A stretch of 64,000 nucleotides of DNA from Candidatus Methanomethylophilaceae archaeon (GCA_944320495.1 CALUHR010000005.1:192001-256000); one strand, 5' to 3'; positions 422 through 60,610 are shown, counted from the stretch's first letter. A program made the numbers and translations. Notes: generated from the sequence alone by a model not told the origin.

Positions 422-1306
422 TCGCTCGGACGGATCATAGTACTTGGAAGTTCTGCGAAGTCTCGTCATATACTCATACGCCAGATCGGATTCGGGATTC
501 GATGGAATCTTATCAATCAAGTCCTGATTAATCTGGTCTGAACTTCTGGCCATAAGATATTCCAAGGCATAGTGGGTAGCTATACAATTGATCGCAATTG
601 GATTCATCAGACCCGCGGTTTGACAGAACTCTCTTTGGAAGATCTCTGCGTCTTCCAGATTGAATATTGTGAATAATCCCCTCGGGGACAGTGGAAAGAT
701 GTAGCCGTCCAAACACATGCCGCGCTCCCGATACTCCTTGCAATGTTTGTGAATGTCGAACAGGTTGCATGGCATCACGGGGAAATCGCAGGTTATTAGC
801 GCATCATGTTCCCACGATACGAACGAACACCCGTAGCTCTCCATCGGTTTCCCCGCGAGTTCCTTCTCAGAGCTGTCTATGGCCATCTGTCTCAGACGGC
901 GGTTTGTCTCACAGATCCTGCTCTCATATTCCGGCCCGAACCTGTCGTCGTAGAATATGTCGGTGGCGGGGGATCTCGCAATCATTAGACTCGCGTATCT
1001 CAGAACCTTGCGCCATTGCTCCCAGTCCGTGATGGTTCCCTAAAGCATACCATCTATCATCGGTTCGCATTCACGCTCTATCCTCGCGATGTCTTTCTCG
1101 GTGAAGTTGATTGGACGATCCTTGGATTCATAGAGTTTCTCTATGAACAACACATTGTTCGGCGACGTGAGGAATCCTCTCCTTCTGCGTGTGTTGTAGA
1201 AGTAGACCTTTCCCTTCGCAGATCCGTCCTAGCTGGCGAATCTCTCCATGTACGCCTGAGGGATGAAGTGGGATCTCCGTGTGGGATTCTGGGCGTTCGT
1301 AGGCAT
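422..1306 (-). CDS. DUF4238-like protein (~294 aa) with two in-frame TAG codons and a proposed CGA stop
   Basis: The N-terminus RRSHFIPQAYMERF resembles the DUF4238 HYVPQxYLxxF motif. TAGs at 1229-1231 and 1040-1042 are in frame with ORF 218..985. First in-frame CGA is at 422-424, where lower-GC coding sequence ends, followed by hairpin ggacggc-gtca-gccgtcc (398-415). TTTATA box ~27 nt upstream of the ATG. Confidence 0.7.
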
Positions 1307-1411
1307 ATCCTCATCCACCGGGGGTCGCAGGTATAAAGGAATCGACCGACTGGTTCTGGCAGCATATTCCGAGAATCCGTTCGAACGAAGTTCAACGGAG
1401 CAATTGTCTCT

Positions 1412-4400
1412 ATGATATCTTCGAATATGAACAAAAATGGGGAGAAAACCAAGCTCCTCGCAGCGGTCGCCGTGCTCGCCATGATCATGTGCGTGTTCGC
1501 GGTCGCCGCCATCCCGTCGTCCGATGCGGTCACAGGAGACGAATTCCTGGACGGTGCCGATGCAAACGGCGTTATCACCCTCGACGCGGATGTCACCGTA
1601 AGTTCCGTTATCACCGTGACCGGAGCACTTACCATCAACGGTAACGGACACACCATCTCCGCCGCCAAGGACTTTAGCACCTCTGGCCAGGGAGACAAGA
1701 ACCTCATAAGCATCGAATACAACGAGGACAAAGTCGTTCTCAACGATGTCACCTTCGCCGGTGCCTACGGAGTCAACGTCTACGATGCCGATGACGTCAC
1801 CCTGAACAACGTCACCGTCAAGGACAGCACCGGTGCCGGACTGACCGTCGGAACCAACTCCGTCGCCACCGTCAACGAGTCCTTCTTCAGCAACAACGGC
1901 TGGGGAGACATCAACGTCGACAAAGCTTCCACCCTGAACATCGACGACGCCACCGAGCTGACCAGCAACTTCCAGATCTGGTCCGAGGACGTCACCGCCG
2001 AAGAGAACCCCAGCGTCATCAACGCCGACTCCTACGTCGGCTACAGGTGGGACAAGACCGGCAACGATGCCGTCACCGACGGACGCGCCTACTTCAAGAA
2101 CGGCAACGTCCCTGCTGACATCACCCTCACCAGCCAGACCCTGACCGTCGCGGAGGGCCAGGCCCTCTTCATCGTCGGAGGCTCCACCGGAGTGATCCCC
2201 ACCGGAATCACCAACAACGGAATCGTCTACACCATCCCTGAGGGAACCACCGGTACCGTCAGCGGCAACACCGTCAGCATCTCCGGCACTGCAGCTATCG
2301 CGGACCTCGATGCCACCGGAGCCGACTGGAACGGCCTCTTCGACGGTGTCACCTCCAGCTGGTCCATCGTCGGAATCGCCGTCACCCTGAGCGACTACGA
2401 GTCCGTCGACCAGACCAACCCCGCGATGAACGACGCCTACCCCAAGGAGGACGGCACCGAGTCTTTCCCCAACGACAAGAAGACCACGACCCTCACCGGT
2501 AACGAGACCGGAAGCTACTGGTTCCTCATCCCCACCGACGGATCCCCTGTCAGTGTCACCTTCAACGGAAAGGACACCAACGCGGACCTCGCTCTGACCT
2601 TCAACTTCGACGTCGAGAACAAGGCCACCGCCACCGATGCCGCCTCCGCTAACGATGCTCTGAAAGACGAGAACATCAGCGAGGTCTCCATCGACGGATC
2701 CAAACTGACCAGCAGCACCACCCCCATTGTGGTCCCTGCCGACAAGACCCTCGTCATCGAGAACTCCACCGCTGACAGCGAGTTCGCCATCAACACCGTC
2801 GACGGCGACAAGACCCAGAGCGCCAAATTCGATGGAGTCACTGGAACCATCATCATCACCAAGGGATCCGTCGTGATGTACAGCCCTGACATGGTCAAGG
2901 ACGGAGTCGTCACCGTCGGAGCCGGCACCACTCTCAGGATCGCCGACGGAACCTCCATCGACGGAGTCAAGTTCGTCGGAACCGACGACAAATCCATCGT
3001 CGAGGTCCCCAGGAGCGCGACCGTCACCTTCGCCAACACCGTCACCTTCGACGACGTCGCCGTCAACCTGAAGGGAACCGTCAACGGCGGAACCATCCAG
3101 GTCGAGGAGGGCGCCACCGTCACCATCGACGGAACCGTCACCAGCGCCTTCGTCAACAATGGCGGAAAGATCGTCAACAACGCCCCGTCCCTCGGAGACA
3201 TCGAGCTCAAGGATGGAACCACCGTCATCGACCAGACCTCCATCAACGGAGCCCTCGGCCAGGACATCACCGTCACCGGCGAGGTCACCGTCGCCAAGGG
3301 AGGACACATCATCTCCAACGGAACCCTGACCATCGCCGAGGGTGCCAAGCTCATCCTCGAGGAGGGATCCTACCTCGCCATCGGAGCCACCGGAATGGTC
3401 GTCAACAACGGAACCATCGAGGTCCAGGCCGGAACCGAGGGCAACGAGACCTTCCGCTACGGCGGAAGCAGCATGGACGTCAGCACCACTGGAGCCATCG
3501 ACTTCCAGGGCGCCAACTCCTTCGCCAACGCCTTTAACGGCAGCACCGGAACCGACATCTCCGTCGCCGGAACCGTCACCGTCGGTGAGGAGGCCGCCGC
3601 CAACATCACCGGTATGACCGTCGCCGCCGGAGGCAACCTGTACGTCTACGGCAACGCCACCGGAGCCATCGTCAACAACGGAACCGTCACCGTCGACACC
3701 GAGGTCGGTTGCGACCTCGATGTCAACATGGGCAACGGGGCCGTTCTGAACCTCGTCAATGCCGTCGGAACCGTCGACGTCGCCGATGACAAGATGTCCT
3801 TCAAGTACCAGAACGCCGACAAGCCCATCAAGAACCCCGCCGAGGTCACCTTCCAGGACGTCTCCGGAATCACCGTCACCGACTCCCTGACCACCAAGGT
3901 CGAGAAGGACACCGCCACCGCGGATCCCGATGATACCACCAGGAACGGATACGGCAAGCTCTGCATCTCCGGAGCCGCCGGCATCGCCTCCAACGTCGAT
4001 GACACTCTCGATAAGGCCACCATCACCGTCGTCAGAGGAACCGTCAACGTCGCCGAGGACGCCACCCTCTCCTTCGTGAAGGGCTACACCCTCGCCGTCA
4101 ACGGAACCCTGGCCGTCGCCGGATCCGTCGACGCCACCGCCGAGGAGACTTCCATCAACGGCACCGGAACCGTGGACGTCACCGGAAAGATTACCTCCGA
4201 CGATACCATCGCCACCACCACCGTCAACGCCGCCTGGTACACCAGCGGAACCGGAAAGGACGCCGTCAACGTCTACACCTCCCTGGCCACCGCCATCGCC
4301 GACGGAGCCGACGACATCGATCTCCTGGGCAACTACAAGATCGCCGAGAACATCACCATCCCCGCCAACGTGAAGGTCAACGCCAACAGCGCCATCACCG

Positions 4401-6394
4401 TCACCGTCGACAAGGATGTCACCGTGACCGTCGCCTTCGACGCCGCCACCAACGCCAGCGGAAAGCTGATCAACAGCTCGAAGGTCATCACCGTCAACGG
4501 AACCCTGATCGCCCAGAACTACGACAAGAGCGGAGTCGTCCAGAACAACGTCGTCTGCGACGTCATCGTCGACAACGAGCCCGAGAAGAAGTTCACCAGC
4601 ATCTACGTCGCCCTCGACGAGGCCGTGGCCGGAGATGTCATCAACATCACCAAGACCGGAACCCTGACCATCACCGAGGACATCGTCATCCCCGAGGACG
4701 TCAAGCTCGTCGTCCCCAGCGACTGCGACGTGGTCGTCGACGACGGTGTCACCGTGACCGTCAATGGAACCTACGAGGGAGAGGGTGCCTACGACATGAC
4801 CAACCCCGAGGATGAGAAGGACCCCGCCCAGACCATCGTCAACGGCATGTTCAAGGTGTCCAACACCTGGACCGACGAGATGAGGCAGTACGTCTCCGGA
4901 GCCTACTACTCCTACGACGGCTTCTACGTCATCTCCCCGCTGTCCGTCCTCTCCACCGTCATGGCCGACGTCGAGAGCGAGGACGCCAAGATCTACGGAA
5001 CCGTCACCGAGGGAGCCGTCACCCTGGCCTCCGAGGACGATTTCGCCGTCGTCATGACCGCGAACGCCAACCTCACCGTGACCGACCTCACCCTCGACGG
5101 TGTCAAGTTCGACTTCGCCGCCGACAAGTCCAGGGTCAACGGAACCGTCACCACCGCCGACGGAAGCTTCGCCCTGACCAACGTCATGGGAGGAGTCATC
5201 ACCGCCGAGACCGCCATCGACGGGGACAACGAGACCGTCACCGCCACCCTCACCGGCAACGTCGTGAAGACCAACCTCACCGTCGGAAACGAGAAGGTTG
5301 ATGACATCAAGGCCTCCGTGACCGTCTCCGGCACCGCCGACATCGCCGACGCCACCGCCTTCGGAGTTCCCATGACCGTCTCCAAGGACGCCGTCGTTGG
5401 AGTCGACTCCGTCAAGTTCGACGAGACCGTCACCGTCGAGGGAACCCTCAACGTCAAGAGCACCGCGGTCGAGTTCACCACCATGAACGTCACCGGAACC
5501 GTCGCAGTCGCCGACAAGGCCGCCGCCTCCGTCGACACCCTGTACCTCGGCGTCTCCAAGAACGCCACCACCAACGTCATCACCGACCTCGGTGCCGGAA
5601 CCATCTCCAACGTGACCGTCGACAGGGTCGCCTACGTCGGACCCTCCGCCTCCTTCACCGCGATCGATGCCCAGGCCGAGGACGGAACCAACGCCCTCAA
5701 GGTCACCGCCTACTACGCCGAGGACGCCCTCGTCGTGACCGCCTACGCCAACGGCACTGCGGCCACCCCTGTCAAGATCTCCGAGATCACCGCCTCCGTC
5801 CCCAACGCCTACCTCTACGGATGGGCCGACGAGGAGGGCAAGGTCATCGGCGAGAAGTACGACAACGTCGAGTACGATCCCGTCGTCGGAGCCGAGGACT
5901 GCGCCAGGGTCGATGCGAAGGTCAACTACGACATCTACGTCATCAACCTCAGGGCCGACCAGAACGCCATCAGCAGCATCTCCGTCGATGGAAACCTGAT
6001 GGAGTTCGGAATGATCCAGGGCGGAGTAGCCACCGATGGAAACGCTGGATGGTACTACGGCTACACCATCACCGTCGCCGCTGGCAGCCACACCATCCAG
6101 TACCAGCTGGCCAACGGTTACTCCGGAGAGGGTGTCCTGACCGTCAACGGAACCCAGCAGAGCGGACTGACCTTCACCACCGAGGGCAACCCGACTGGCA
6201 CCGACAAGACTGTCACCTACAACCTCCAGCTCACCGGCTTCGAGAAGTCCGGCTATGTGCCCGACTCCCCCGACACCGGAGACAGCGACTCCGGCGAGAC
6301 CGGAATGACGATCACCGACTACCTGCTGATCGTCCTCGTCGTCCTCATCATCGTCATGGCCATCATCGTGGCCATGAGGCTCATGAGGAGCTGA
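1412..6394 (+). CDS. Giant adhesin/S-layer-like protein 1 (1660 aa, subfamily A)
   Basis: Signal peptide after MISSNMNK, T/V/D/G-rich beta-rich body, C-terminal TM MTITDYLLIVLVVLIIVMAIIVAMRLMRS, strong NNC codon bias. Confidence 0.9.
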   Translation: MISSNMNKNGEKTKLLAAVAVLAMIMCVFAVAAIPSSDAVTGDEFLDGADANGVITLDADVTVSSVITVTGALTINGNGHTISAAKDFSTSGQGDKNLISIEYNEDKVVLNDVTFAGAYGVNVYDADDVTLNNVTVKDSTGAGLTVGTNSVATVNESFFSNNGWGDINVDKASTLNIDDATELTSNFQIWSEDVTAEENPSVINADSYVGYRWDKTGNDAVTDGRAYFKNGNVPADITLTSQTLTVAEGQALFIVGGSTGVIPTGITNNGIVYTIPEGTTGTVSGNTVSISGTAAIADLDATGADWNGLFDGVTSSWSIVGIAVTLSDYESVDQTNPAMNDAYPKEDGTESFPNDKKTTTLTGNETGSYWFLIPTDGSPVSVTFNGKDTNADLALTFNFDVENKATATDAASANDALKDENISEVSIDGSKLTSSTTPIVVPADKTLVIENSTADSEFAINTVDGDKTQSAKFDGVTGTIIITKGSVVMYSPDMVKDGVVTVGAGTTLRIADGTSIDGVKFVGTDDKSIVEVPRSATVTFANTVTFDDVAVNLKGTVNGGTIQVEEGATVTIDGTVTSAFVNNGGKIVNNAPSLGDIELKDGTTVIDQTSINGALGQDITVTGEVTVAKGGHIISNGTLTIAEGAKLILEEGSYLAIGATGMVVNNGTIEVQAGTEGNETFRYGGSSMDVSTTGAIDFQGANSFANAFNGSTGTDISVAGTVTVGEEAAANITGMTVAAGGNLYVYGNATGAIVNNGTVTVDTEVGCDLDVNMGNGAVLNLVNAVGTVDVADDKMSFKYQNADKPIKNPAEVTFQDVSGITVTDSLTTKVEKDTATADPDDTTRNGYGKLCISGAAGIASNVDDTLDKATITVVRGTVNVAEDATLSFVKGYTLAVNGTLAVAGSVDATAEETSINGTGTVDVTGKITSDDTIATTTVNAAWYTSGTGKDAVNVYTSLATAIADGADDIDLLGNYKIAENITIPANVKVNANSAITVTVDKDVTVTVAFDAATNASGKLINSSKVITVNGTLIAQNYDKSGVVQNNVVCDVIVDNEPEKKFTSIYVALDEAVAGDVINITKTGTLTITEDIVIPEDVKLVVPSDCDVVVDDGVTVTVNGTYEGEGAYDMTNPEDEKDPAQTIVNGMFKVSNTWTDEMRQYVSGAYYSYDGFYVISPLSVLSTVMADVESEDAKIYGTVTEGAVTLASEDDFAVVMTANANLTVTDLTLDGVKFDFAADKSRVNGTVTTADGSFALTNVMGGVITAETAIDGDNETVTATLTGNVVKTNLTVGNEKVDDIKASVTVSGTADIADATAFGVPMTVSKDAVVGVDSVKFDETVTVEGTLNVKSTAVEFTTMNVTGTVAVADKAAASVDTLYLGVSKNATTNVITDLGAGTISNVTVDRVAYVGPSASFTAIDAQAEDGTNALKVTAYYAEDALVVTAYANGTAATPVKISEITASVPNAYLYGWADEEGKVIGEKYDNVEYDPVVGAEDCARVDAKVNYDIYVINLRADQNAISSISVDGNLMEFGMIQGGVATDGNAGWYYGYTITVAAGSHTIQYQLANGYSGEGVLTVNGTQQSGLTFTTEGNPTGTDKTVTYNLQLTGFEKSGYVPDSPDTGDSDSGETGMTITDYLLIVLVVLIIVMAIIVAMRLMRS

Positions 6395-6808
6395 AGGTAA
6401 GATTCCGTCCCTCAACCTGAAAAGCAAACCCCGAGGGGTCCGTAAGGACCTCTCCCAAGGGATGGGTCGAAGGCAGACGAATCATCTAGTAACCTGAACA
6501 GGAAACCCCGACGGCCAGGTAGGGCCGTCCCGCCGATCCGGTGCCGCCAAAGGCGGCACCCGGTCGGCACAGCATTCTCCAGATCCGTCGGATCGGACTT
6601 ATCATCGTTCTCCCGAACAATCCGTTCGGATCTCTCATTGAGGAAGAATGATCCCTCCGCTCTCGGAGGGTCGGCAGTCCTTTCGGGACCGCCTGTGTTT
6701 GCTCTTCAGGTGATTGGTTACTTTCTCTTGCTATTGCTCCCCATCCCTTTGGAGGGGTCCTCACGGACCCCTCGGGGTTTCCTCTTCAGGTTGTTGGATG
6801 GTTCGCGA
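6395..6808. repeat. Structured convergent spacer (copy 1), an array of stem-loops
   Basis: Closely similar to 20182-20588. Contains the aacctgaaNagSaaacccc motif and GNRA-capped hairpins on both strands. Confidence 0.85.
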
Positions 6809-9800
6809 TCAGCTCCTCATCAGGCGCATGGCCACGATGATGGCCATGACGATGATGAGGACGACGAGGACGATCAGCAGGTAGTCGGTGATCGTCATTC
6901 CGGTCTCGCCGGAGTCGCTGTCTCCGGTGTCGGGGGAGTCGGGCACGTAGCCGGACTTCTCGAAGCCGGAGAGCTGGAGGTTGTAGACCTTGACAGGGGA
7001 GTCGTATCCGGAAACGGTGGACAGCTCGCCCTCGGCGGTGAATGTCAGTCCGGACTGCTGGACTCCGTCGACGCTCAGGACGCCCTGTCCGGAGTATCCG
7101 TTGGCCAGCTGGTAGCTGATGGTGTGAGCTCCGGCCTCGACGACTGCGGTGTAGCCGTAGAAGAAGCTGCCCTTTCCATCGCTGATCATTCCGAACTGCA
7201 TGATGTTGTTGTCGATGCTGATGCTGGAGATGGCGTTCTGGTCGGCCCTGAGGTTGATGACGTAGACGTCATACTTGACCTGGGCATAGACCGCGGCCAC
7301 CTGTCCGACGCTCTTCTCGTTGGCGGAGACTCCGTCGGCATCGAGCCAGGTTCCGTTGAACCAGGCGTTCTCGACGGGGACGGCGGCCTTGATGGTGTTC
7401 TCGAGGGTGTCTCCATCGATACCGAGAGCGGGCTCGCTGGTGTAGGCGGTGATCCAGAGGGCATCCTCGACGTAGTACTCGGTGCTGTTGTCGAACACAT
7501 CCTCGTCGACGGCCACAGTGGTTCCGGCGGCGGCGTAGATGGTGTCGCATCCGACGGTTCCGTTGACGGCGGCGGAGGTGCTGGTGACGGCGAACTCGTC
7601 GTCGAGACCGACGTACATGATTCCGTTGACGATTCTCAGGTTTCCGTTGGAGTTGGTTCCATCGGCAGCGGCGACGGTGACGGTTCCGGCGACGAAGAGG
7701 TCGTCGACGGTCAGGGTCTGTCCACCGGCGACGGTGACGGTTCCGGCGACGAACAGCTTTCCGTCGATGGTGCCGTAGGTGGCGGAGACGGAGGTGCTGG
7801 TCGCGGGGACGGTCAGAGTGGCATCCGCATCGACGGTGACGTCGCCTGTGACGGCGGCGGTAGCGGCGTTGGCGCTGCTGACGATGACGGTTCCGGCGGT
7901 GACGTTGAGGGTGGCCAGGTTCTTCTTGGGAGTGTTCTTGTCGTTCGGGTCGGGGTAGTTGACGTTGGCTCCGGTGATGACGAGTCCGTTCTCGGAGTCG
8001 ACGTCGAGTCCCTTGACCTTGACGGCCTCGATGCTGGCGTCGCCGACGGTGACGGTTCCGCTGAAGACACCGGCAGCGTCGGAGTCCAGCTGGGCCCCGT
8101 TGGCGAGGACCAGGGAGGTCAGGGTGACCTCGGCCTTGGCACCGATCTTGATGACGGCGCAGTCGTCGGTGGCGGTGAAGGTGGTGTCTCCCTCGGAGAC
8201 GGTTCCGTAGATGACGATCTCGTCGAGGACGGTCGGGAGGACCGCGGCGGAGACAGCGGTGGCGACGGTGGTGACGTAGTTGTAGTCGCCGTCGGTGAAG
8301 TAGGCTCCGGAGATGTAGGATCCGTCGTCCAGGGTGTTCTTGGTGGTGTTGGACGCCTCGTAGACGACGTCCTCCATGACCTTCAGGGTGCCGGTGACGA
8401 CGATGGCGGAGGCCTCCTTGTCCTTCTCGGTGGTGGCCTTGGTGGCGAACTGCTTCTCGGCGACAATGCCCTCGTTGGGCCTGTCGGACTGGAGGGTTCC
8501 GGCGACGGTCAGGGTGACTCCGTTGTTGATGACGATCTGGGAGTCGAACGGGATGACCAGGGTGACGCCCTCCTTGACGGTGAAGTCCTTGTCGAGGGTG
8601 ACCTTGGTGGCGTCGAAGACGTTGATGACGTCTCCGGCGGTGGCCTCGGTCATGGCGGTGTAGATGTTGGTGTACTTTGCCCATCCGTTCTTGGTGAGCT
8701 TTCCGTCGGCGTCGACCTGCTTGGAGACGACGTCGGCCTTGATGGTGGTCTCGGCGGCCTTCAGGTCGGTCCTGTCGTTGAAGTACAGGGTTCCGAGGAC
8801 GTTGGTGGTTCCGACCCTGCCGTAGGTGGCACCGGCGGCGATGTCCAGCCTGACGTCCCTGTTGTCCTCGTCTCCGATGTTCAGGACGGTCTTGTCGTCC
8901 TTGAAGGTGAAGTCGATGGCGGGGACGGTGGCGGAGGTCAGGACGGTGTTGGTTCCGTAGAGGGTGATCTCGTCGATGGTGCTGTCCGCGTTGGCGGCTG
9001 CGATGGCCTCGTCGACGGTGACGTAGTTGCTGTAGTCGTCGGCGTTGACCTTGGTGACGTAGTGCGCGGCGTTGACGGTTCCGCCGATCTCGAACTCGGG
9101 CATGTAGATGTGTCCGGCGTCGGCGAGGGTGATGGTTCCGGTGCTGACGATTCCGTTGTTCAGAGCCTTGTCGGAGACAGGGACGTATCCGGAGACGGTC
9201 AGCTTGGCGGTGCTGCTGATGGTGAGCTTGGTGTTCTCCCCGATGGAGAGGGCGGCGGCATCGTTCTCGGCAGCGGAGACGGTGAAGTTGCCCTGTCCGA
9301 GCTCAACGACGGCAGCAGGGTTTCCATTGTCATTGCCATTGTAGTCGGCGGCGATGCTTCCGGAGATGTCCATGACGTTGGTGATCTTGTCGACGCCGTC
9401 CACCTTCTTGACGCTGAAGTTCTCGACGACCGTCAGGCCGGAGATGGTGGAGTTGGTTCCGGAGGAGCTGAATCCGAGACCGTTGGCGGTGACGCCGGCG
9501 GTGGATCCGATGGTCTGTTCGTCCTTCACGATGAGGCTGGCATCGGTGATGTAGAGGTATCCCCCGGTTGCCATGGCGAGTTTCTGAACCTCGACGGAGG
9601 CTCCGTCGGCCATCATGTTGATGTTGATGTTCACCTGGCAGGGGAGAAGGTTGCTGTCGATGTCGGTGGGCTCGGAGTCGATGATGATGGCTCCGCTGTT
9701 GTCGAAGGTGACCTTGTCCTTGAACTGGCCCTCGAGGGTCAGGGTGACGTCCTGGGCGACGACGATCTTGGCTCCGTCAACCTGGTAGAGGCTGGAGGAG

Positions 9801-30785: not shown

Positions 30786-31235
30786 ATGTCCCCTCCCTAC
30801 GACGCCACCGACATCGCACGCTTCATCGTCCAGAGTTCCAGAGGGATGGGCAACCCCGTGACGAACGCCAAGCTCCAGAAGCTGCTCTACTACGCATGGG
30901 TCGGATACTACGGGAGGACGCACACATACCTCTTCTCCGACGAAATCTGCGCCTGGAGGTTCGGCCCCGTCATCCCGTCCGTCCACCGCGAGTACAGGAT
31001 CTGGGCCGGCGTCCCGATCCTCCTCGCCGAGCCGCCGTCGGAGATCGACGGCGACACCAAGCGGTTCCTCCTCGATTTCATCCGGGACAACAGCGACTTC
31101 ACCGCCAGCCGTCTCGTCAACCTCCCGAACCGGGAGGACTTCCCCTGGGGGTCCGTCTATGACGGAAATCGGAAGTTCACCCCGATCCCCTTCGAGAGGA
31201 TCGCCGCCATCGAGCGTCTCGGGGATTCGGCCCGA
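30786..31235 (+). CDS. Panacea/SocA (DUF4065/GepA-like) antitoxin-family protein, 149 aa, proposed CGA stop
   Basis: YDATDIARFIV...VTNAKLQKLLYYAW...LFSDEICAWRFGPVIPSVH motifs. First in-frame CGA at 31233-31235, directly followed by a recurrent intergenic motif. Confidence 0.8.
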
Positions 31236-31765: not shown

Positions 31766-32299
31766 TCGCCATCTCCGACGACCGGGCTGAAAGGCGGGAC
31801 GATTCTGCCACCTCTCGAACTCGGGATCGACGATTATGTCCCCGTTCTCGTCCCGTTTCGGCTGATAGGTCCCCCGATTCTCGAACCATTGCAGGACGAA
31901 CGCCATCGGATAGGTCAGAACGACTATACCGAATAACGCCAGAGGGACCATCCAGAGGTTCGGCGCGACATACGCGTCCACGAACGCCCCGACTTCGCCG
32001 TGATAGATGAACAGACATGATAGCAAGAAGGTCGCGACGCCGATGAGCGGAGCCATCGGAGTCGCGCCCCTCAGATGGGACGCGACGAAGATCGATGCGG
32101 CCGCGACCCCCAGGATGGTCACCGGCACCCCCAGATCATCGTGGAAACAGAACAGCGGCACGAGGATGCCTATGGGCGTCTTCAGGAATTCGATGACGAG
32201 AACGGCCCTCAGACCGAGTTTGAACACCCCCAGCGCGGAACAGATTACCCACACCGATGTCAGAATCAACTCGAACTGATCGCCCGTCAGCCGCCCCAC
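31766..32299 (-). CDS. Multi-pass membrane protein, proposed CGA stop
   Basis: Several TM helices. First CGA after the TM region is at 31766-31768 (...FQPGRRRW*), 10 bp from the convergent gene's TAG. The GTG start at 32299 is tentative. Confidence 0.55.
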
Positions 32300-32479
32300 C
32301 AGGGCGGCGGTATGCGGGCATCCTCTAAAGACCCAGCGACCCCGCGCATTCCATCGCATCCCGTTCATAAACGCTTCCCATCCCATTGCCCCCTTCCCTT
32401 TTCCCCGATACACCCCCGACATCCGAACTCCGATTCGGACCCGGCCCCGGCCATCGGGCCGGGCCGAACGCGTGATATC

Positions 32480-42630: not shown

Positions 42631-43200
42631 ATGTCCAGCATCCGCGTCGTCCGTCAGAGGATCCAACCCTGGAAGGGGCGCGACTGCACCGCCGAGAGGT
42701 ACTACGTGAACGACTGGGTCGACCGCATCCAGCACAACCTCCTCCTCTACGCCTCCCGGAATCCCGGCACCCCGTCGCTGTCCCTTCTCCGCAAGGTCGG
42801 GAAGGTGTGGTACGACTCCAACGCGGGATGCCACGTCGACGGGATCTTCGACAGCTATCTGGCCCGGTTCATCGCCCGCACCATGGAGGACACCCAGTTC
42901 CTCGAATCCGAGTACAACGTACCCTACGGAACTACCGAGATCGTGGACTGGACGTCGCTCGTCGACGCCGTTCCCATGGAGGAGCGCAACGGGATATGCG
43001 TCTTCAGCCACGGCGGACGCGAGTACCTCGTGGAGCGCGGATACTACGAACACGCCCGCCGCACGATCCAAGCCTACCGTCTGTTCGACGGCACGGTGGA
43101 CTTCGAGACGGAGTCCGCCGACCTGATGGAGCTCGTCCGCAGGCTGATCGGAGACGACGGGCATGAGGGGATCGTGCCGCTGTCGTCGATGTTCTCGCGA
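42631..43200 (+). CDS. Hypothetical protein (189 aa), proposed CGA stop
   Basis: Coding-like codon bias to about 43200; first in-frame CGA at 43198-43200; TATTATA box ~25 nt upstream. Confidence 0.7.
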
Positions 43201-43203
43201 CCT

Positions 43204-45501
43204 TCGCACCTTCCCGCCGTAGCTGGCGATCGTCGACTCCCTGCACTCCTTCTCAGCCAGCCTCATGCGGTTGCCCATGTAGCGCCAGTCAGGCACCCCG
43301 TCCCCGGCTGGCAGCGTCAGCCTCAGGTTCAGGAGATCGGAGGCGTTGTCGATGAGGATGTCCTCCCCTCCGATCAGTTTCTTCGCCATGGCGCAGACGA
43401 TGTACTGCTGGACGCTCCTCGGCATCTTCCTCCTGGTGCGGAGGACGATCACCTGCCCGGACGTCTTGAACGGCACCGGCTGGTATGTGACGGCCACGAC
43501 GCGGCGGCCCCTCAGGGAGACGGCGATGCACTCGCCCTTGTGGACATCCCCGTCCGCCGGTGCGAACTTGCCCCACCCGTTGTTGCCCTTCTTCGCGATG
43601 ACCGTCGGGACGGTTCCGGAGACCTTCGGCGGCTTGGCGGAATCCTCCTCGAGGAACCCGTTCGCCTTGTAGTTCGCCGTCTTTATCGTCCTGACCTTGA
43701 ACGACTTCGCCGGTTCGGCGGGGCCGTCGTTGACGACCTCCATTCCGTTGCGTCTCTGTTCGGCGACGAAGTCCAGCCAATCTCTCATGTAAGCCGTTAT
43801 GTCGTCGCCATTCACCCTCGCCCCTTTCTCCGATGGGTTCACCCACCATTCGTCGGGGGCGACATCGACTACCCTGAACAGATTGGATGGCCTATTGTCG
43901 CGAAGTATGTCGATGATGTCGAAAACATCATCAGTCCCCGACGGCGATGCAATCCTGGTAGCGGTCTTGTCGTGCGGTTTCCCCGCCGAGAGATAGACGA
44001 TGCAATGGCGGTCGTCCAGGCGGATCGTGCTCACGAGCCTGTTGTGATCGAGGATGCTGGAGCGGAGTACCCTGCAGCCCTTGGCGTCACCGGACACGGC
44101 CTTCATGGGCACTATTGCGAACACCGTCCCCTCGATGCGTACGGTGTTCAGCATACTGTTGAGCAGAGAAAGAACATCTGAGGGGGACAGATCGCGTTCC
44201 GAGATGTCCGTGACGATATGGTCGGGCCTCTTGTTCCCCGTCGGGAGTTTGTCATCGGGAAATCTGCGGGGGACCACATTGATCCTCCTGGCACCCGATA
44301 GGATGACGTTGAAGATCGCCGTGGTGTACCTCCACGGATCGGACTCCATCCCGTAGATTCCTTTGTTGACCATCTTGTCGGAGCCGCTCCTGCTCTCCGC
44401 CTTGGCACCCACCCTGTAGGAGACCGCCTTGATGAACGCCCCGTCACCGCAGAACGGATCCAGGATGACCTGCCCCGTCACCGGGTTCAGGGTGGACACC
44501 ATCGCCTGCCCGTAGAGTCCCAGGTCGGGTTTCTGACGCTTCTGATCCAGATTGTGTTCCTGGCACTCGGTGAACACGGAATACAGCTGCCCCATCTGCT
44601 CCATGTCCATCTTGTGGATGTACCTGCGCGTCTCTATCGCCAGTCTTCTTATGGGACTTTGGCCGTCTTCGCCCCTTTTGTTCAACCGACCCTCCTTGGT
44701 GAGGGTGTCCAGGATGTCATAGAACACATCCTCCGCTGACCCATCGGTTCCGGGGAAGACTATGCCGAGCTTCCGCAGTGTCGCCTCGGTGTGATCCTTG
44801 AGAATCTTACAGTCGGTGTTGTACGGATCGCCCTTGAGATCGAACTCGCTGTAGGTCTTGTCCAACTTGGCCAGCAGCATCAGGCCCATGAGGACATTCC
44901 GTTCCTCTCTGGACCGCGTCACCTTGTCGAACTTTGTGCGAAGGTCCCTGCAGATCTTGGCAAGTTCCTTGGGATTGTCACTCAGCCCCCTGTATTTCAA
45001 CCCCAGACCGACCGAGATGTAGTCTCTGGCATCGGATTCCGAGAACGCCGTGAAATCCCTGACGGTCCTCTGGGGATCATAGAGGCACGTGTACCCGTCA
45101 GTGTCCAGCTGGCAGATGTACGGCTGGATGTTGAGGACACCTTTCTTCGCGGTGCAGCCGACGGCGATCGCTTGCTTGAACCGCCCGTGTCTCATCACCT
45201 CGCCCGCATAGAAGACGGCCCCGTTGTCCGCATACTTGGCGATTGTCTCGAAATCCATACGGAGATGGTCCGTCTCGTCGACGGAGCGTTGGTAACGCGG
45301 ATCGGCCTTCACCTCCACGATTATCGGAATCCCGTCCGACATGACGACGATGTCTGGGATGCCCTGATGCCCCGACCCCCTCTTGGAGGCCTTCGATAAC
45401 GCCTGGGCGATGCGCTTGTCCTTCGTACCTTCGAACTCCGGCTTCAATCCCGCCTTCTTCATGAGTTCGCCGATCTTGTATGTGACATCGCGCTCGCTCA
45501 A
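43204..45501 (-). CDS. BcgI-like restriction-modification fusion (PD-ExK nuclease + N6-MTase-like + specificity domain), 765 aa, proposed CGA stop
   Basis: GIPDIVV...IIVEVKA nuclease motif; ILDPFCGDGAFI SAM-binding motif; C-terminal TRD-like region ending PDWRYM; first in-frame CGA at 43204-43206. Confidence 0.75.
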
Positions 45502-45787
45502 GGACCACCACGGACCCGATTGATTAGGAGTGCGCGCTTAATTGTTTCGACCTTTTCAAGGCCAGCATCGGCTCGGGTCGGACTCGTACCCCTTCTCCAG
45601 GACGGAGCCTCTCCCGATCTATCTGGCGGAGGGCAGACACAAATTCCACGTCTTCATGAACGGGAAGGAGATCGCCTACACAGACACGGAGATCTACGGC
45701 GACAATGAACTGGTCGTCTGGCAGGAGGGCATCACCGCTCAGACGAGATGCAAATTCTATGAAGGCGGATGGTGAGGGGCAACCCCC

Positions 45788-49560: not shown

Positions 49561-49770
49561 CGGCATCCCGTTATTTCTAGGTCGGCACTTCGTATGTGCC
49601 AGCATCCCGATTCATTCTTAAACGGTTCCCATCACATTGTTCCAGCCCCCGTAACCCGTTGAAGACTGCCCTTCCGAGATTCGAACGTCCGCATGCGCGG
49701 GCACTGCCCCGGGAGGCGGGAAGTGCGCGAACCTCCGAATCCCCCTTCCGGGGCTTTCGGAGATGAAAGC

Positions 49771-52956: not shown

Positions 52957-52990
52957 GACGACGGGCATCGCCGCCGCATCGCTGGCCCTG

Positions 52991-53278: not shown

Positions 53279-53282
53279 ACCG

Positions 53283-53630: not shown

Positions 53631-53717
53631 TAACGACTGCCCCTCCCTTCGGGGAGGGGCGAAAACCCCAACCCGCGAGGTTTCTGATATGTTCGATGTT
53701 CTCGGGAGGTCCCGCCG

Positions 53718-54020
53718 ATGCTGGACCTCGTACTGGCGATCGGCGCGGTGAGCGTGTTCCTGCTCATCATCCCGCTGATCCTGATGCTCGTGTTCATAAT
53801 GCAGGGCCGTATCGTTCCCGCAGTCGTCTGCGGTGCGATCCTGCTGTTCCTGCTGAGCCCCACGCTGGCACTCATCCTTCTCCTGGTTGGTGCCATCGCC
53901 AGCCTGCTGATAGGCCGGCCCGATCTGTCGAAGGCTTGCGCCCTGACATTCATCGGCATACTCCTGGTGTATGTCGTCCTGATGGTCGTCGGCGTCGTGA
54001 CCATCGTCGCCATCTCGTGA
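53718..54020 (+). CDS. Small highly hydrophobic membrane protein
   Basis: 100 aa, almost entirely TM helices. Confidence 0.7.
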   Translation: MLDLVLAIGAVSVFLLIIPLILMLVFIMQGRIVPAVVCGAILLFLLSPTLALILLLVGAIASLLIGRPDLSKACALTFIGILLVYVVLMVVGVVTIVAIS

Positions 54021-54915
54021 CGGCGACGGCCCCTCCGATCCGAGGGGCAAACTCCTTCCTTCCGACCTACCAATTTCTTGTTAGTGCCACTTTTTTCCTC
54101 GATTAACGTCCGGAATTGAAAACAGTGAGACGCTTTTCCCGAGTTAGTGGGGATTTTTTCTGCGATTAAGGGGAAACACGGATGTCCGTCAAAGGAGCGG
54201 TCGCACAGGAAACCCGGACATCCGTTTCGCAGGCGCATTGGTAATCGACCACTGATTATAAAAGGGATGGGCGGACGAAGAGGAATCGGAACGTCCGCCC
54301 TCGGATCCGCTGGATTCTTTGGGAGCACCCGGAGCGGATCCCGGCCACAAAGGCTCTACAGAGTGACCGTATGTCCAGATGCGACCGGGTATTTATTCCG
54401 CCCGATGGAACCCCCAGAGAGGGGGCGGGTGCGTCAAGAAGGAGGACCGCACCCGCCCGCCGCCATCGGGATGATTGAATGGGATGCACGCTCCGACGAC
54501 AATAGGTCAAGAAGCATTTCCCGATGTCGGATGGATAATGGATAGTGACCGAACTATAAATTCCGTTCGATGGGAAGCCGGGGTGTCCCATCCTTGTCCA
54601 GTACCTTCCATCCGGACACCCCGGCACCGGTGCGTGTCTCTCCCCCAGAGGTAACAACATGGGGCACCGGGTCGCTGCTCTTCCAGAATGCGACGTCCCT
54701 CGAATTGCGTCGCCGTATAAAGATTGAGCGGTCACAACCGATGGTGACCGAACCAACACTCGCATTTCCGCACATCCCATTCATAAACGCTTCCCATCAC
54801 ATCGTTCCAGCGGCCGTCCCCCGTTGAAAACCGGCACCCCCGAATCGCAAACATCTTCCGCGAAGCGGAAGGAGCGTGATACGATCGAACAGCACACCCT
54901 CCCGAAGGTGATGTG

Positions 54916-55866
54916 ATGGATCTCTTGGGACTGTATCCTTTCATCGCCATCGGATGCGCCATATTCGGACTATTCGTGGGCAGCTGGTGCAAACGCCGCA
55001 CCCAGGTGATAGTCCCCTTCAACGATCCCCTCTCGTGGACGTTGCTCCTGATGGTGTTCGTCATCCTGCTGATGCCGGACCTCAAGCCCGAATGGGCGTT
55101 CATCGACCCCTACGACCTCAACCACGACGCCTGCCTGATCGGCTTCTTCGTCATGTACATCTACGGATACTGCAAGGAGGAGCTCCTGATGGAGTTCGTC
55201 TCCGCCCATGACATCTTCAAGCTCAAGCAGGAGATCAAGCCCATCGCCTACTACTTCAACGACGAGGCCCAGCTCTGCTGGCAGCCGCAGTCCATGAGGT
55301 ACGTCCTCAAGAGGCTGATCTTCAACGTCGACAATCCCCTGGACTACGACTTCAGCAACATCAACCGCCGCCGCTTCGTCGAGTTCCAGGGTAAGTTCCT
55401 GAAGATGTCCGCCTATGTGGTGGACACCGCCAAGATGACCGAGAAGGTGGAGTACGTCTACAAGTGGCGTCTCAAGTTCAAGGTCATCAAGCTCCACTTC
55501 GATCCCTCTCCGGTGAACTCCTTCGACATGTACGACTTCTACGTCGAGGGGAAGATCGCCAACGAGTACGTCCAGAACTACCAGCGTCTCAAGGTCCAGA
55601 ACGCCAACTCCTCGGCGGACATGAGGATGGCCAGGATCCTCGGGGTCGTGGACCTCATGGAGGGACTCACTAGCATGACACCCGACGCCGTCGTCATGGA
55701 CCGCCTCATATCCGACATGGACGCCAGGAACGGCGTCACCACCGAGGGCGACGTCCGCCGCGCGGACAGGTCCGGCAAGCAGAGCGCGAAGGCCAGGAAT
55801 CGCGTCCAGCGCATGGCCAGGGAGATGCAGTCCGAGGAGGTGAACGACGATGCCTCTGATGAGCGA
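54916..55866 (+). CDS. Membrane protein with N-terminal TMs and charged helical C-terminus (316 aa), proposed CGA stop
   Basis: GAAGGTGA SD; codon bias collapses after EEVNDDASDE; first in-frame CGA at 55864-55866, overlapping the next gene's start. Confidence 0.75.
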
Positions 55867-57121
55867 CGACCCCTACATGATGGGCCCGCCCCGCTCCCAC
55901 GTCATCACAGAGCAGCCGGACCTCAACACCACCGAGATCACATCCTACGGATCGGCGTACATGGACGTCAAGGCCGCCCTGTACCTCCTGGACCAGATGA
56001 TCGAGGAGGCCGACGAGCGGTACACCCGCGCCCTGGCCTCCATGTACGGCCAGAGATACGAGGAAACGAGGGAGATCCTCACCCGCAAGTCCATGTTCCT
56101 CGCATCCCCCAAGCCGAAGGTCCAGAGCTACGAGGAGATGCAGGCCGTCAAGGTGGCCAAGGAGATCTACCGCAAGGCGTCCACCCTCAGGGACCTCAAA
56201 CAGCTCCGCAAGGAGGTGGAGGCCTACGGCACGATGGTGGGCACCCAGGAGTACGGCGAGAGGATGCTCGAGAACGGGCTGTCCAACGACGTCTCCCGCA
56301 CCGTCTTCAAGAAGAGGGCGGCCAAGGGACTCACGAACAACTACGAGTCCATCAAGGCCATGAGGGAGGGCCGTCTGAACGACGGACTCGACGAGCAGCA
56401 GCGTAGGATGGAGAGGATGGCCAGACTCATCCTCATGGCGAACGAGTTCGACGACGCGGAGAGAGGCTACCCCGAGGAACCCGACGTCGGAAGGCTCAGA
56501 CGCGCCAGCGGTGCCCCGGCGACGGTACCCGTCGCCAATCCCGAACCCATAAGGGCCGTGGCCAACGACGACTACGAGGAACCCGACGAGGGCATCGACA
56601 TGGGCATCCTTGACCTCATCACCACCTACTCGGACGGATTCGAGGAGGAGGAAGAGGAGGAATCTGAGGAGACTCCCGCCGACGTCCCCGAGGGACCCGA
56701 GCCGGAGGAACCGCTCCGCATAGCCCCGGTCGCCAGCTCGATGGAGGATGTCCTTAACTCGATCCCGAAGGAGACGCCCAAGGAGTACATCGCACCCGCA
56801 GCCAGCTCGATGGAGGACGTTCTGAAATCCATCCCGAGGACCGAGCCCGAGAGGGAGATGATCGGCCCGATCTCCGAGGCCGACCGCACCCGCATCGACG
56901 CCCTCCGCGGACAGCGTGTCGAGCGTCTTCCCCCGGTCAGCAGCAGCATCGAGGACATCCTGGACGTCATGGATAGGATAGACGCCCTGGACCGCTCCGA
57001 CGCCGAGGACGACTACATCAAGTGGATGCTCAGGCAGAACCTCGAGAAGGGCCGCACCGAGCAGATCGACAGCGAGGAGGACGGCGGCGTCGTCATCATA
57101 AGGCAGGAGGGATCCGAATGA
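55850..57121 (+). CDS. Acidic helical hypothetical protein (423 aa) with internal repeats
   Basis: GAGGTGA SD; IAPxASSMEDVLxSIP repeated twice plus a degenerate third copy; ATGA overlap with the next gene. Confidence 0.8.
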   Translation: MPLMSDDPYMMGPPRSHVITEQPDLNTTEITSYGSAYMDVKAALYLLDQMIEEADERYTRALASMYGQRYEETREILTRKSMFLASPKPKVQSYEEMQAVKVAKEIYRKASTLRDLKQLRKEVEAYGTMVGTQEYGERMLENGLSNDVSRTVFKKRAAKGLTNNYESIKAMREGRLNDGLDEQQRRMERMARLILMANEFDDAERGYPEEPDVGRLRRASGAPATVPVANPEPIRAVANDDYEEPDEGIDMGILDLITTYSDGFEEEEEEESEETPADVPEGPEPEEPLRIAPVASSMEDVLNSIPKETPKEYIAPAASSMEDVLKSIPRTEPEREMIGPISEADRTRIDALRGQRVERLPPVSSSIEDILDVMDRIDALDRSDAEDDYIKWMLRQNLEKGRTEQIDSEEDGGVVIIRQEGSE

Positions 57122-57486
57122 GCAACCTGTTCATCCAGGTCACCCCGGACGCCCTCAACGCCTACAACGACCTGAGGTACTACTACTCCGTCGGCGACTA
57201 CAACGCCACCTACCTCCGCGTCTTCGAGACCTATCTCAGCCCCCTGTTCAAGGAGGACTTCCTCGTGAAGGACAAGCTCTACGAGGAGGTCTCCCGCCTC
57301 TATCCCCTGCCGGACGAGGACGACGACTGCCAGTACATCTCCGCCAGGGCCTACCTGCTCTACATGAGGGCGTACGAGAAGATCATGCGCCAGAAGGGCA
57401 TCATCGGCGGATGGGACGACGGCGAGGCCGTGGCCGAGCAGACCGACATGAGGGTCATCGACCCGATGGTGGAGTACAGGAGGCGA
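57118..57486 (+). CDS. Hypothetical protein (122 aa), proposed CGA stop overlapping the next ATG
   Basis: First in-frame CGA at 57484-57486 in CGATG. Confidence 0.75.
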
Positions 57487-57782
57487 TGCCGATGGACTAC
57501 CACACCAACATGGTCGGATACGTCGGCAGGCTCCGCATCGTCAGCCCCATAAGGCTCGACATGTCCGTCGACGGCAACGGCCTCTGCCGTGTCCTCGAAC
57601 CCGACATGCGCCTTGACGGCATCGGCACCTGCCCGGACGAGGCCCTCAACGAGTTCATGGGCGAGGTCCTCTTCGCCTGGGACGCCTTCGTTAAGGATGA
57701 TATCGGCAAGTTGGATGACTCTGCCAAAGAACTCCGCTCGTGGCTTCTCTCCCACTTCGAGGAGATCGGGGGTGAGAGCCGA
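57486..57782 (+). CDS. HicB-like fold protein (98 aa), proposed CGA stop overlapping the next ATG
   Basis: VSPIRLDM...LDGIGTCPDEALNEFMGEVLFAWDAF; first in-frame CGA at 57780-57782 in CGATG. Confidence 0.7.
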
Positions 57783-59488
57783 TGGAGGACGTGGAGGCGT
57801 GGGAATGGCACGAGCAGCACCGTCTCGGAAGGAAGATCATCGGCGACATCTACGTCGAGGACGCCTTCGATCCCGATTCCGATGGGCCGGAGGACGACGA
57901 CATCGACTTCGAGGATGACGTCCTCGGATTCGATCCCGAAACAGCCGAGCAGCAGCAGGACGAGGTACCTGTCCCCGAGTGGATCAACTCCGCCATCGAC
58001 GTGGACAAGCTCATGTCGGACATCTTCCGCCCCGGCACCAACCACGTCACCGACGGGATGAGGGGCGGAGGCAAGACCCATCAGGCCGTCGCCTACACCG
58101 AATACATGGTGGAGGGCCGCTTCAAGGGGATGCCACGCGTCATCATGCTCACCAACATCATCTTCGTCAAGAGGGTGAGCTTCGAGGGCGACCTCGAGGA
58201 TCAGTTCGTCATGGAGGACCCGCCCGGCGTCCACCACGTCACCAGCATGGAGCAGATGTTCCGCATACAGACGAAGATGATGAGGCGCTACGGCAGGGAG
58301 GGCGTGATGTTCATGCTCGTGCTCGACGAGGCGCAGAACTTCCTGTTGGCGGACGAGTACCAGCAGGACACCTCCATCGCCTTCATCAAGTTCTACGGGA
58401 CCACCAGGAAGTTCAACACCTGCATCTGGCTCCTGACCCCTTCGATCAACAACCTCCCTCCCAGGGCCAGGAACTTCCTCGATGCGGACCCCGCCGGCTA
58501 CGTCTCCTGCCAGTGGAGGAAGAACAAGCAGCTCGCCGCCCAGTACATCGCGGCCAACCACATAGAGAACGCCGATGTCCGCGAGTTCACCACCATGAAG
58601 ATGGGTGCCAACATGGCCCCCGTCTGGTTCAGGATAACCACGACACCGTGGACGCGCCCCCTTGAGGAGTTGGGAATAGGCGAGTACGGCTACGACCATC
58701 TCGCCAACGCCGACTTCAAGGTCAGCATCGACGACAACAACCCCTTCGACTTCAAGGCGTTCATGGAGGCGACCTCGGACATGCCCTCCTACCGCATGGC
58801 GACGGTCATGCAGGAGTTCTTCGACAGGATGGACGGCAAGTCCGCCGACCCGGACGCGCCCCCCGAGGACGACCCCAAGGCCGAGAGGACGGCAGAGATC
58901 CTCAGGATGAGGGAAATCGGCCTGACCTTCGATCAGATAGAGTTCGTCACGGGGGTGGCGGCATCGACCTGCCGCTATTGGATCAACAGATACGGCTCCG
59001 CAAATCCGGCCGCACAAGCGGCCGACAGTCCCAAGGGGGCGGGGGGCGGAGACCCCGCCCAACCCAAGCGCGGGAACCGCTCTAGGAATACTCCTAGAGT
59101 GGGTTCCCGCGCGGGTAAGAAGGGGCTGAAAACACCTCCGAAAAGGCTGAAGAGGGACTCTGCTCTAGAAAAGCTAGAGTTGCTGAAAAATGACACAGCC
59201 AGATCTTTGAGCAGCAGCAACGCAACCACCCCGTTTTCGCGCCCTTATATGTATAATCCTAGAGAGGGGGAGGAGGACGGGGGGTCTCGCGGAAAGTTGC
59301 CGATTGACCCCCAACCGGTTGGCGGACGGTTGGCAGCCGAGACACCCCTAGAGGGGGAGGATTCGGCTGACCTAAACCATGATGAGGATGAATCGTTCGA
59401 CGACGGGGTATGGGGCTACGGCGAAGATGGGGGATCCGATGACGGGGAACCCTACGACGTCGGGGAGGAATACGAAGAGGCGGAGCGA
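57782..59488 (+). CDS. P-loop NTPase (Zot/virus-extrusion-like) with a downstream HTH and a disordered tail
   Basis: Walker A GMRGGGKT, Walker B LVLDEAQ, RKF...WLLTP, HTH-like IGLTFDQIEFVTGVAASTCRYW. The only in-frame CGA (59486-59488) lies 6 codons before the TGA at 59506. Confidence 0.8.
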
Positions 59489-59509
59489 TCTCCGCGGGAA
59501 GAGTGAAAC

Positions 59510-60610
59510 ATGAGGGATGGGAAGATGAGCAACAGCAAACGGAAGGATGACGACCCGCTCTCCTACGGGAGCGTGATGGCCGTGTGGATGGGGAAGTCCT
59601 ACCGCATCCCCGTCGATGCGGACGGATACGTGCCCATGGAGGCCCTGGTCATGCGCTATCAGCAGATGGGGAACAACGGAAGGGACAAGGGAAGGGACTC
59701 GGACATAGTGTTCCCCTCCCATGTCAGGCCGAAGGAGATCGTCAGATGGTGGGCGGACCCGTCCTCGTGCGACATCGAGGGCATCGACACCCGCGACTCC
59801 AAGGTGTACGACGTCTCCGGCCTGAAGGGAAGGCGCATGAAGGCCGCCCAGAGGAAGATCGGGATAGTCACCCCTTCCGCCGACGAACAGAGACGCATAC
59901 GCAGGATCCTCTCGGAGGCGTTCACCGCCGCCGAGCTGGACGCCATGACGAGGGAGGGGTCCTTCGTCATCCGCACCCGCCCGAACTGCGGGAGCGTGAT
60001 GGGATACTACCTCAGGAAGGCCGACGGCCAGGAGATCCCCCTCATAACCTTGGAGGAGGGCGTGTCCCCGGACACCGTCGTCCACGAGACCGTCCACCAC
60101 GCAAGGACGTGCAGGAGGTCGGGCAAGTACACCAGGACGGCGTTCCCCATGAAGGGCGGAAGGCTGGACGAGGCGTACTACGGACTGAGCCAGCAGCAGC
60201 GCGACATGATCAACGACGCCGAGGAGACGGAGACGACAGCCGAGGCGACAGCGAGGACCAAGAGGGACCCCTGCCCCACCGGGTATTGGGACAATGTCGG
60301 CGGAAGGGAGGCGTACATCCGCGACAAGACCGCCCTCGCAAGGTCGTGCGGCGGAGGGGACTGCACCCTGAAGGGGGCCAAGGCCGTCAGGACCGTGGAG
60401 AAGCAGTACGACAAGCTGGACATCGCGATGGCGTCTATCATGGCTGACGTCCCCGCGAAGGAGTCCGCCGCGAGGATCGCCAAGGGTTCCGCGTCCGGTA
60501 GGCCGAAGACGAAGACGGCAGCAACAGCGAAATCCAAGAGCCAGACTCCGAAGAAGACCACGAAGGCAAAGAGCCAGACATCCAAAACCAAGGGGAAAGG
60601 GACGAGGCGA
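59510..60610 (+). CDS. Zincin-like metallopeptidase (HExxH) with a Lys/Thr/Ser-rich tail, proposed CGA stop
   Basis: TVVHETVHH motif; the only in-frame CGA (60608-60610) is followed by a pyrimidine tract; TGA at 60658. Confidence 0.7.

Follow-up and report, generated by a model that had tools for sequence, protein, structure and literature searches.

The codon CGA, which the standard code assigns to arginine, very probably serves as a functional end-of-translation signal in a gut methanogen of the archaea, where it would act as a fourth stop beside TGA, TAA and TAG; on the comparisons of genes and genomes set out below, we put the probability of this reading at about 0.9. The proposal arose from a window of 64,000 nucleotides (Candidatus Methanomethylophilaceae archaeon, contig C5:192001-256000), the whole stretch of DNA analysed here, for which a first-pass annotation had listed ten in-frame CGA codons at or just before expected gene ends and had suggested an undescribed variant of the genetic code in which CGA ends translation. 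That suggestion is supported by a drop in coding potential at CGA, by the stops of orthologous genes, and by the recurrence of the pattern across a whole genus of independently assembled genomes.

The source genome is metagenome-assembled (1.77 Mb, 14 contigs, 61% GC) and encodes McrA, and the placement of its release factor, aRF1, points to the family Methanomethylophilaceae of the order Methanomassiliicoccales. The genus to which it belongs also takes in a close member recorded as 'Ca. Methanoprimaticola sp. MG2'. A 10-kb core stretch of the genome is present in chicken or bird gut DNA sequencing runs from four studies, and the same stretch occurs in small shares in metatranscriptomes from three studies. 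None of the sequence differences listed for the contigs of these runs coincides with any of the five CGA sites.

Genome-wide distribution of CGA

Counted over all frames, CGA occurs at 27.6 per 1000 trinucleotides and is as common as CGG, while in the central 40% of confident open reading frames (ORFs) it falls to 0.16-0.43 per 1000; the codon has thus gone from conserved internal positions, as it does in a sense-to-stop change. Along standard-code ORFs its counts by decile are U-shaped (381, 159, 38, 33, 7, 9, 19, 41, 92 and 314), and those of CGC and AGG are flat. Coding potential, followed with a codon log-odds model trained on the central parts of long ORFs from the whole genome, falls exactly at the in-frame CGA, which extends to the entire genome the claim made for the window. 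Specifically, with 233 ORFs aligned at the first CGA to occur in the second half of each, the mean log-odds is about +0.3 before the codon and about -1.0 after it, a profile that is the same at 914 TGA stops, and neither alternative frame turns coding past the CGA. These profiles rule out frameshifts as well as the view that CGA does no more than mark tails that are non-coding in any case.

Gene calling with CGA added to the three standard stops yielded 1589 genes, of which 1133 end at TGA, 387 (24%) at CGA, 51 at TAA and 18 at TAG, while a conservative, ORF-based estimate places the share of CGA-ended genes at 16.5-19%. In the whole 1.77 Mb, just five CGAs are flanked by coding signal both upstream and downstream.

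The sequence context of terminal CGAs bears on an earlier observation that the window sites share no flanking motif. This observation is correct only in part, since genome-wide a T follows the terminal CGA in 53% of cases as against 29% after TGA; CGATG stop-start overlaps are many, and CGATCG is frequent. The terminal CGA and the base that follows it may therefore form a four-base termination signal. Standard stops are also enriched downstream: the next in-frame one lies a median of 12.5 codons past CGA as compared with 28 past TGA (p about 1e-10), the difference persists among genes of at least 300 codons (18 versus 28, p 0.002), and the very next codon is a standard stop in 9.8% of cases after CGA and 2.8% after TGA. 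Such backup stops fit imperfect termination at CGA together with selection for a second chance to stop.

Stop positions in related genomes

The C-termini of the CGA-ended genes were compared with orthologues in genome pieces from eight relatives, with TGA-ended genes as the control. Where alignments reach the C-terminus, the relatives mostly carry TGA, TAA or CGA at exactly the homologous codon, in a comparison that the first-pass annotation had proposed. In Cdc48, the C-terminal residues VPFYG are followed by TGA in 11 genomes of the genus and by CGA in four (this genome, G010, G002 and G018, the last being the same species from an independent bin). Outside the genus, in other families of the order, a conserved arginine in this C-terminal segment is encoded by CGA. 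In all, 57 comparisons place a terminator at the identical codon (TGA in 43, TAA in two and CGA in 12), so that here too a former sense codon occupies positions at which relatives have standard stops. Most of the remaining comparisons that reach the end have a terminator within three codons; three have none within eight codons, and 34 alignments ended before the C-terminus. The TGA-ended controls behave in the same manner, and some of them match a CGA in G010 and G013.

Within the genus, central CGA is depleted in all seven genomes surveyed (0.05-0.54 per 1000 codons), while the share of ORFs that end at CGA and have a non-coding tail ranges from 1.7% to 27%: it is 27% in G010, 16.5% in this genome, about 10% in G013 and G002, 5% in G004, and about 2% in G108 and G008. 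In the four genomes surveyed from sister genera (G042, G069, G117 and G047), CGA occurs at 0.2-0.9 per 1000 and normal coding continues past it, and in one sister genome of high GC content the codon is in free use.

The cognate tRNA

It had been predicted that a genome with CGA as a stop would lack tRNA-Arg(TCG). This prediction failed, as ARAGORN locates the gene at C13:413317-413390, and a tRNA-Arg(UCG) gene is present at all 39 loci examined in the genus; none of the 39, however, has a canonical anticodon arm. In 33 of these tRNAs the 31-39 pair, which closes the anticodon loop, is mismatched (C.A in 26, A.A in five and U.C in two), with the other four stem pairs preserved by compensatory changes. 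The remaining six, from one subclade that includes two complete genomes, have the loop CCUCGAC, in which C33 replaces the universal U33, and a further mismatch at 27-43. An initial BLAST and pattern search had suggested loss of the gene from this subclade, a conclusion rejected once a subclade-specific query, by which alone these six loci were recovered, found the gene with C33. By comparison, the 19 tRNA-Arg(UCG) genes examined in the family's other genera are all paired at 31-39 and have U33. The anticodon UCG, the identity position A20 and the cloverleaf are conserved across the genus, and the tRNA is therefore under selection, although its anticodon arm suggests that it is probably a poor decoder.

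The release factor gene

The genome has one aRF1. The first-pass annotation had directed attention to the NIKS and YxCxxxF motifs as places where a change in codon reading might be visible, but both are intact, and no genus-specific change is found in NIKS, GTS or YxCxxxF. Residues that differ from those of other families do flank the motifs, at positions equivalent to 49, 56, 59, 68 and 122 of the human protein; an initial impression that those beside NIKS were specific to the genus was rejected, since the sister genera have the same residues; those at the five positions are common to most of the family.

The gene contains a CGA of its own. The codon specifies Arg88, the arginine of the segment SIAA-R-LKTY, which aligns with R81 of human eRF1, and 22 of the 23 genomes compared in the genus use CGA for it while all neighbouring codons vary synonymously; at this position 15 genomes of other families use CGC, CGT, CGG, AGA or AGG. 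In a second sample, each of 40 genus-level aRF1 genes contained exactly one CGA, at residue 88 in 38 of them and at residue 21 or 35 in the two that lack it there. The base after the aRF1 CGA is always C.

An association of CGA with aRF1 is also seen beyond the genus. In the family's other genera, each of 40 sampled aRF1 genes retains one or more CGAs in the N-domain, at positions that are typical of the respective genus: residue 35 in 26 genes, followed by 88, 37, 133, 21 and 60. The link between aRF1 and CGA may thus be older than the genus, in which case the switch at genus level would have been the weakening of the tRNA. As at least one N-domain CGA is kept in all 80 aRF1 genes sampled across the family, though the codon occurs at only 0.2-0.9 per 1000 in the four sister genomes, reading of CGA by aRF1 may date from the family ancestor.

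Internal CGAs and probable read-through

CGA does not act purely as a stop. It also stands at the conserved arginine of aRF1 and at the junction of a gmhA-gmhB fusion, and some read-through must therefore occur. Of the five CGAs flanked by coding signal, three are genuinely internal (aRF1, gmhA-gmhB and a flavodoxin-like gene); the other two, the CfbC/CfbD-like and ankyrin cases, were rejected, as each is better interpreted as a pair of genes that share a frame, the second of which starts shortly past the CGA. In gmhA-gmhB (C13:193621-194700, minus strand), an SIS domain (GmhA-like) and an HAD domain (GmhB-like) are joined by the in-frame CGA, and in this genome no start codon lies past the junction. 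Eleven genomes of the genus have CGA as the junction codon, one has TAG and two have AGA, and in four a TAA divides the pair into separate genes; in another family the two form a true fusion with lysine at the junction. The gmhA-gmhB CGA is accordingly a candidate for programmed read-through yielding a short and a long product. At the read-through sites of aRF1 and gmhA-gmhB the base after CGA is C or G, unlike the T-rich context of terminal CGAs. The CGA of the flavodoxin-like gene, for which no orthologue was found among the fetched pieces of relatives, may have arisen by recent mutation or be read through, or the gene may be a pseudogene.

One pelota-like gene, with the domains eRF1_1 and eRF1_3 (C1:20932-22224), itself ends at CGA; beyond it the frame stays open for a further 424 codons.

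A proposed mechanism

We propose that aRF1 would terminate translation at CGA because tRNA-Arg(UCG), weakened throughout the genus, competes poorly for the codon. In one subclade the weakening would come from the mismatched 31-39 pair that forms the base of the anticodon stem, and in the other from C33 in place of U33. Such a tRNA would have been kept because a few CGAs, the clearest of which is that of aRF1, still need to be read as arginine, and the residual read-through would be put to use at aRF1 itself and at the gmhA-gmhB junction. At aRF1, the CGA would tie synthesis of the factor to the balance between termination and decoding at that codon, producing a negative feedback in which abundant aRF1 cuts its own product short after about 76 residues. 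Changes from TGA to CGA at gene ends would then have built up unequally by species, to between about 2% and 27% of genes. Taken together, release by aRF1, a weakened tRNA, feedback and spread at gene ends make up what we consider a moderately probable account. A bolder version, to which we would give slightly less than even odds, holds that CGA may have a dual meaning, namely that of a default stop read by aRF1 and, at a small number of programmed sites, that of an arginine codon decoded by a purposely weakened tRNA, with aRF1 sensing its own activity through the single CGA of its gene and the genus representing a completed capture of the codon.

Competing explanations

Several observations weigh against CGA as a stop, or against parts of the mechanism above. 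Support comes from the comparison of sequences. The cognate tRNA gene is retained, and its lowered activity is deduced from its sequence. The codon-reading motifs of aRF1 show no change specific to the genus, in which the only fixed changes of that kind are A27D and S152C, and the distinctive residues near NIKS and YxCxxxF are common to sister genera in which CGA is still a sense codon. The flavodoxin-like gene (C8:55331-55837) has its CGA inside the domain, at codon 119. Two genomes of the genus have only about 2% CGA-ended genes, which indicates that termination at CGA may differ among species. Lastly, the window genes are almost without orthologues, so that most of the ten sites are judged by codon statistics and the genome-wide pattern.

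Of the three mechanisms put forward in the first-pass annotation, C-to-U editing is rejected in its frame-blind form, while we infer release by aRF1 in preference to ribosome rescue because CGA is conserved in the aRF1 gene. Rescue would apply if CGA were unassigned or decoded very slowly, stalled ribosomes then being dealt with by Pelota/ABCE1 splitting or by drop-off and hydrolysis of peptidyl-tRNA, without aRF1. Such a route would suit the aberrant anticodon arm of all 39 genus tRNAs, the unchanged decoding motifs of aRF1 and the presence of a pelota-like gene, but this costly process would have to serve between roughly a fifth and a quarter of the genes. Moreover, each aRF1 gene has exactly one CGA, found at another residue where position 88 has lost it, and such strict retention has a regulatory logic only if aRF1 itself acts on the codon; the CGATG overlaps and the preference for T after CGA resemble a true termination signal. 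On balance rescue appears unlikely. Less probable still is site-specific C-to-U editing, by which CGA would become UGA in the mRNA and the standard code would remain valid. Consistent with editing, a single transition separates CGA from TGA, the two replace each other as stops among genomes of the genus, and TGA is by far the commonest stop. An enzyme blind to frame would, however, act on other codons as well, and the NCG codons of serine, proline, threonine and alanine are equally conserved with or without a following A (0.80 versus 0.77 for proline), the edited meaning (leucine, methionine or valine) appearing in 1-5% of cases in both classes when compared with outgroups. An enzyme aware of frame would find no shared motif to guide it. 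Editing would also convert the codons at aRF1 Arg88 and gmhA-gmhB to UGA, for which there is no tRNA, yet a tRNA with a UCG anticodon is kept genus-wide.

The standard code could also stand unaltered if CGA were a very rare arginine codon and the proteins extended to the next standard stop, a reading to which the existence of a tRNA-Arg(UCG) gene, the shortness of many tails (median 12-15 codons) and the enrichment of standard stops just downstream lend some support. The composition of those tails is nonetheless non-coding (-0.5 to -1.0 per codon), some run on for up to hundreds of codons across neighbouring genes (270 for Cdc48, 199 for the methylase gene of the window), and most orthologues stop exactly at the CGA position; furthermore, chance cannot put a codon so rare internally at 17-24% of gene ends. 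We therefore hold this reading to be very improbable. As regards an artefact of assembly or base calling, in which a true TGA is miscalled as CGA, the metagenomic origin of the genome invites the suspicion. The same CGAs are found in G018, however, and the pattern recurs in many species and in assemblies from different groups, while the stretch tested is present in contigs of four DNA studies; T-to-C miscalls would in addition predict an excess of proline, serine, threonine and alanine codons before A, and there is no such excess. An artefact can be dismissed with near certainty.

CGA sites in the window

At all ten sites a CGA is present in frame on the strand given by the first-pass annotation (Table 1), and at eight of the ten the upstream codon log-odds exceeds the downstream value by 0.43 to 1.40 per codon. 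Calling with four stops finds 29 confident genes in the window, eight ending at listed CGAs (those marked as four-stop calls in Table 1) and 21 at standard stops. All 21 of the latter keep their full standard-code length and therefore contain no internal CGA, as had been claimed. The CGAs at 422(-) and 31766(-) cannot be judged by the codon model because their genes are of atypical codon usage. The length earlier given for the Panacea gene when cut at CGA was reproduced. An accompanying caution about two CGAs near uncertain N-termini was correct in that a CGA lies at 45548, though outside any confident gene, and incorrect for 32356, where there is no CGA at the position itself.

Table 1. Window genes and ORFs with an in-frame CGA as their end or candidate end
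Feature	Position	Strand	Length (aa)	CGA	Log-odds upstream / downstream of CGA	Remarks
Low-GC DUF4238-like gene	422..985	-		422-424, candidate end	negative on both sides	Pfam match weak, below cut-off; foreign codon usage, end not placeable by coding score
SocA/Panacea-domain gene	30786..31235	+	149	31233-31235	+0.16 / -0.91	Pfam PF13274; four-stop call; 58 codons to next standard stop
ORF without known family	31766..32422	-		31766-31768, candidate end	-0.18 / -0.64	Not a confident gene call
Gene without known family	42631..43200	+	189	43198-43200		Four-stop call; a tail of 326 codons on read-through, lying antisense to the methylase gene
N6-DNA-methylase-like (restriction-modification) gene	43204..45501	-	765	43204-43206	+0.36 / -0.27	Pfam PF02384; four-stop call; tail 199 codons
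Gene	54913..55866	+	317	55864-55866	+0.43 / -0.86	Four-stop call; next gene starts at 55850; tail 179 codons
Gene	57118..57486	+	122	57484-57486	+0.64 / -0.76	Four-stop call; CGATG overlap, next start 57486
Gene	57486..57782	+	98	57780-57782		Four-stop call; CGATG overlap, next start 57782
Zot-like P-loop ATPase gene	57782..59488	+	568	59486-59488		Pfam PF05707; four-stop call; TGA 6 codons past CGA
Gene	59510..60610	+	366	60608-60610		Four-stop call; TGA 16 codons later

In the CGATG junctions at 57484-57488 and 57780-57784, the A of CGA doubles as the A of the next ATG, an arrangement that is the exact counterpart of the common TGATG stop-start overlap. The methylase-like gene is entered in the public protein record in its read-through form of 965 aa, and a search for homologues returned only this record from the genome itself. 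A tblastn search with the ten window proteins against the fetched relatives gave a single partial match, to the Zot-like protein, and the block at 54.9-60.7 kb was not found in G018, G013 or G010. This block (54900-60700), in which the Zot-like ATPase gene lies among tightly packed small genes, uses CGA stops much as its host does, CGATG junctions included, and is probably a strain-specific integrated element.

Elsewhere in the window, positions 1412-30483 hold five paralogous genes of about 1520-1690 aa in alternating orientation, with strong GC and AT skew and antisense frames that are also nearly fully open. One of the five has a weak right-handed beta-helix match, and they probably encode surface or adhesin proteins. 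A 99-nt 'tRNA-Met' called by ARAGORN at 3669-3767(-) lies inside one of these paralogues and is probably a false call.

Significance and comparison with known systems

If true, this turning of a sense codon into a stop would be without established precedent in free-living cells, and thus in cellular as opposed to organellar genomes. The genus concerned is a large group of methanogens from the guts of chickens, ruminants and humans, and at least one of its strains bears a culture-style name. With CGA-ended genes ranging from about 2% to 27% across one genus, codon capture would be caught in progress, and this spread makes the debate between codon capture and an ambiguous intermediate directly testable. 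The route suggested, in which the meaning of a codon is flipped by weakening a tRNA rather than by altering the release factor, would come with a type of feedback on the release factor that has not been described in archaea. As a practical matter, public protein sets for the genus err at many C-termini, likely in about a fifth of genes, and they merge adjacent genes that share a frame.

In the literature searched, sense-to-stop changes are found only in mitochondria, and no report on this methanogen clade was found. The mitochondrial cases comprise AGA and AGG in vertebrates, UCA in Scenedesmus and UUA in thraustochytrids, with more in green algae (PMC6821328, PMC6551751). As in the present case, the sense codon has gone from the interior of genes and replaces standard stops at their ends. 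Those genomes, however, are tiny, organellar and have a handful of genes, whereas the genome described here is that of a cellular archaeon with about 1600 genes, which retains an altered cognate tRNA gene and in which CGA is apparently still read as arginine at a few sites.

A possible CGA stop has been raised for two hydrothermal-vent archaeal assemblies with CGG reassigned to tryptophan, although stop use was not put to the test and the method employed cannot infer stops (bioRxiv 10.64898/2026.04.02.715157). In those archaea CGA is likewise missing from recognisable protein domains, and its use as a stop was suggested by the author. The vent assemblies differ in having no tRNA(UCG) and a reassigned CGG, while in the gut methanogen the tRNA is present, CGG is still arginine, and homologous stops have been compared. 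Among bacteria, CGG is unassigned in Mycoplasma capricolum, and CGA and CGG are read as tryptophan in Absconditabacteria (PMC8629427). These cases resemble ours in the very low use of a CGN codon and in a changed tRNA, but they concern genomes of low GC content and none is a systematic terminator, in contrast to a genome of 61% GC in which CGA is abundant out of frame.

Methanogens that use pyrrolysine have an ambiguous UAG, for which aRF1 competes with a dedicated tRNA to give short and long forms of proteins (PMC12626013). There too one codon is both stop and sense, and one member of the genus has TAG at its gmhA-gmhB junction; UAG, however, is a stop in the standard code and acquired its sense meaning later, while CGA, a sense codon in that code, would have acquired the meaning of stop.

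The bacterial gene prfB, encoding RF2, contains an in-frame UGA of its own that is passed by a +1 frameshift at CUU UGA C, aided by an upstream Shine-Dalgarno-like element. Both there and in aRF1, a release-factor gene carries in frame, near its start, a stop codon of the factor that it encodes, so that abundance can control synthesis; in aRF1 the early codon is conserved, and the factor would itself read it as a stop. There is no +1 frameshift site in aRF1. Its frame runs on unbroken past the CGA, where a conserved arginine aligns, and the codon has to be read through as arginine. The aRF1 gene of this genus would thus share with RF2 the principle of feedback and achieve it by a different mechanism.

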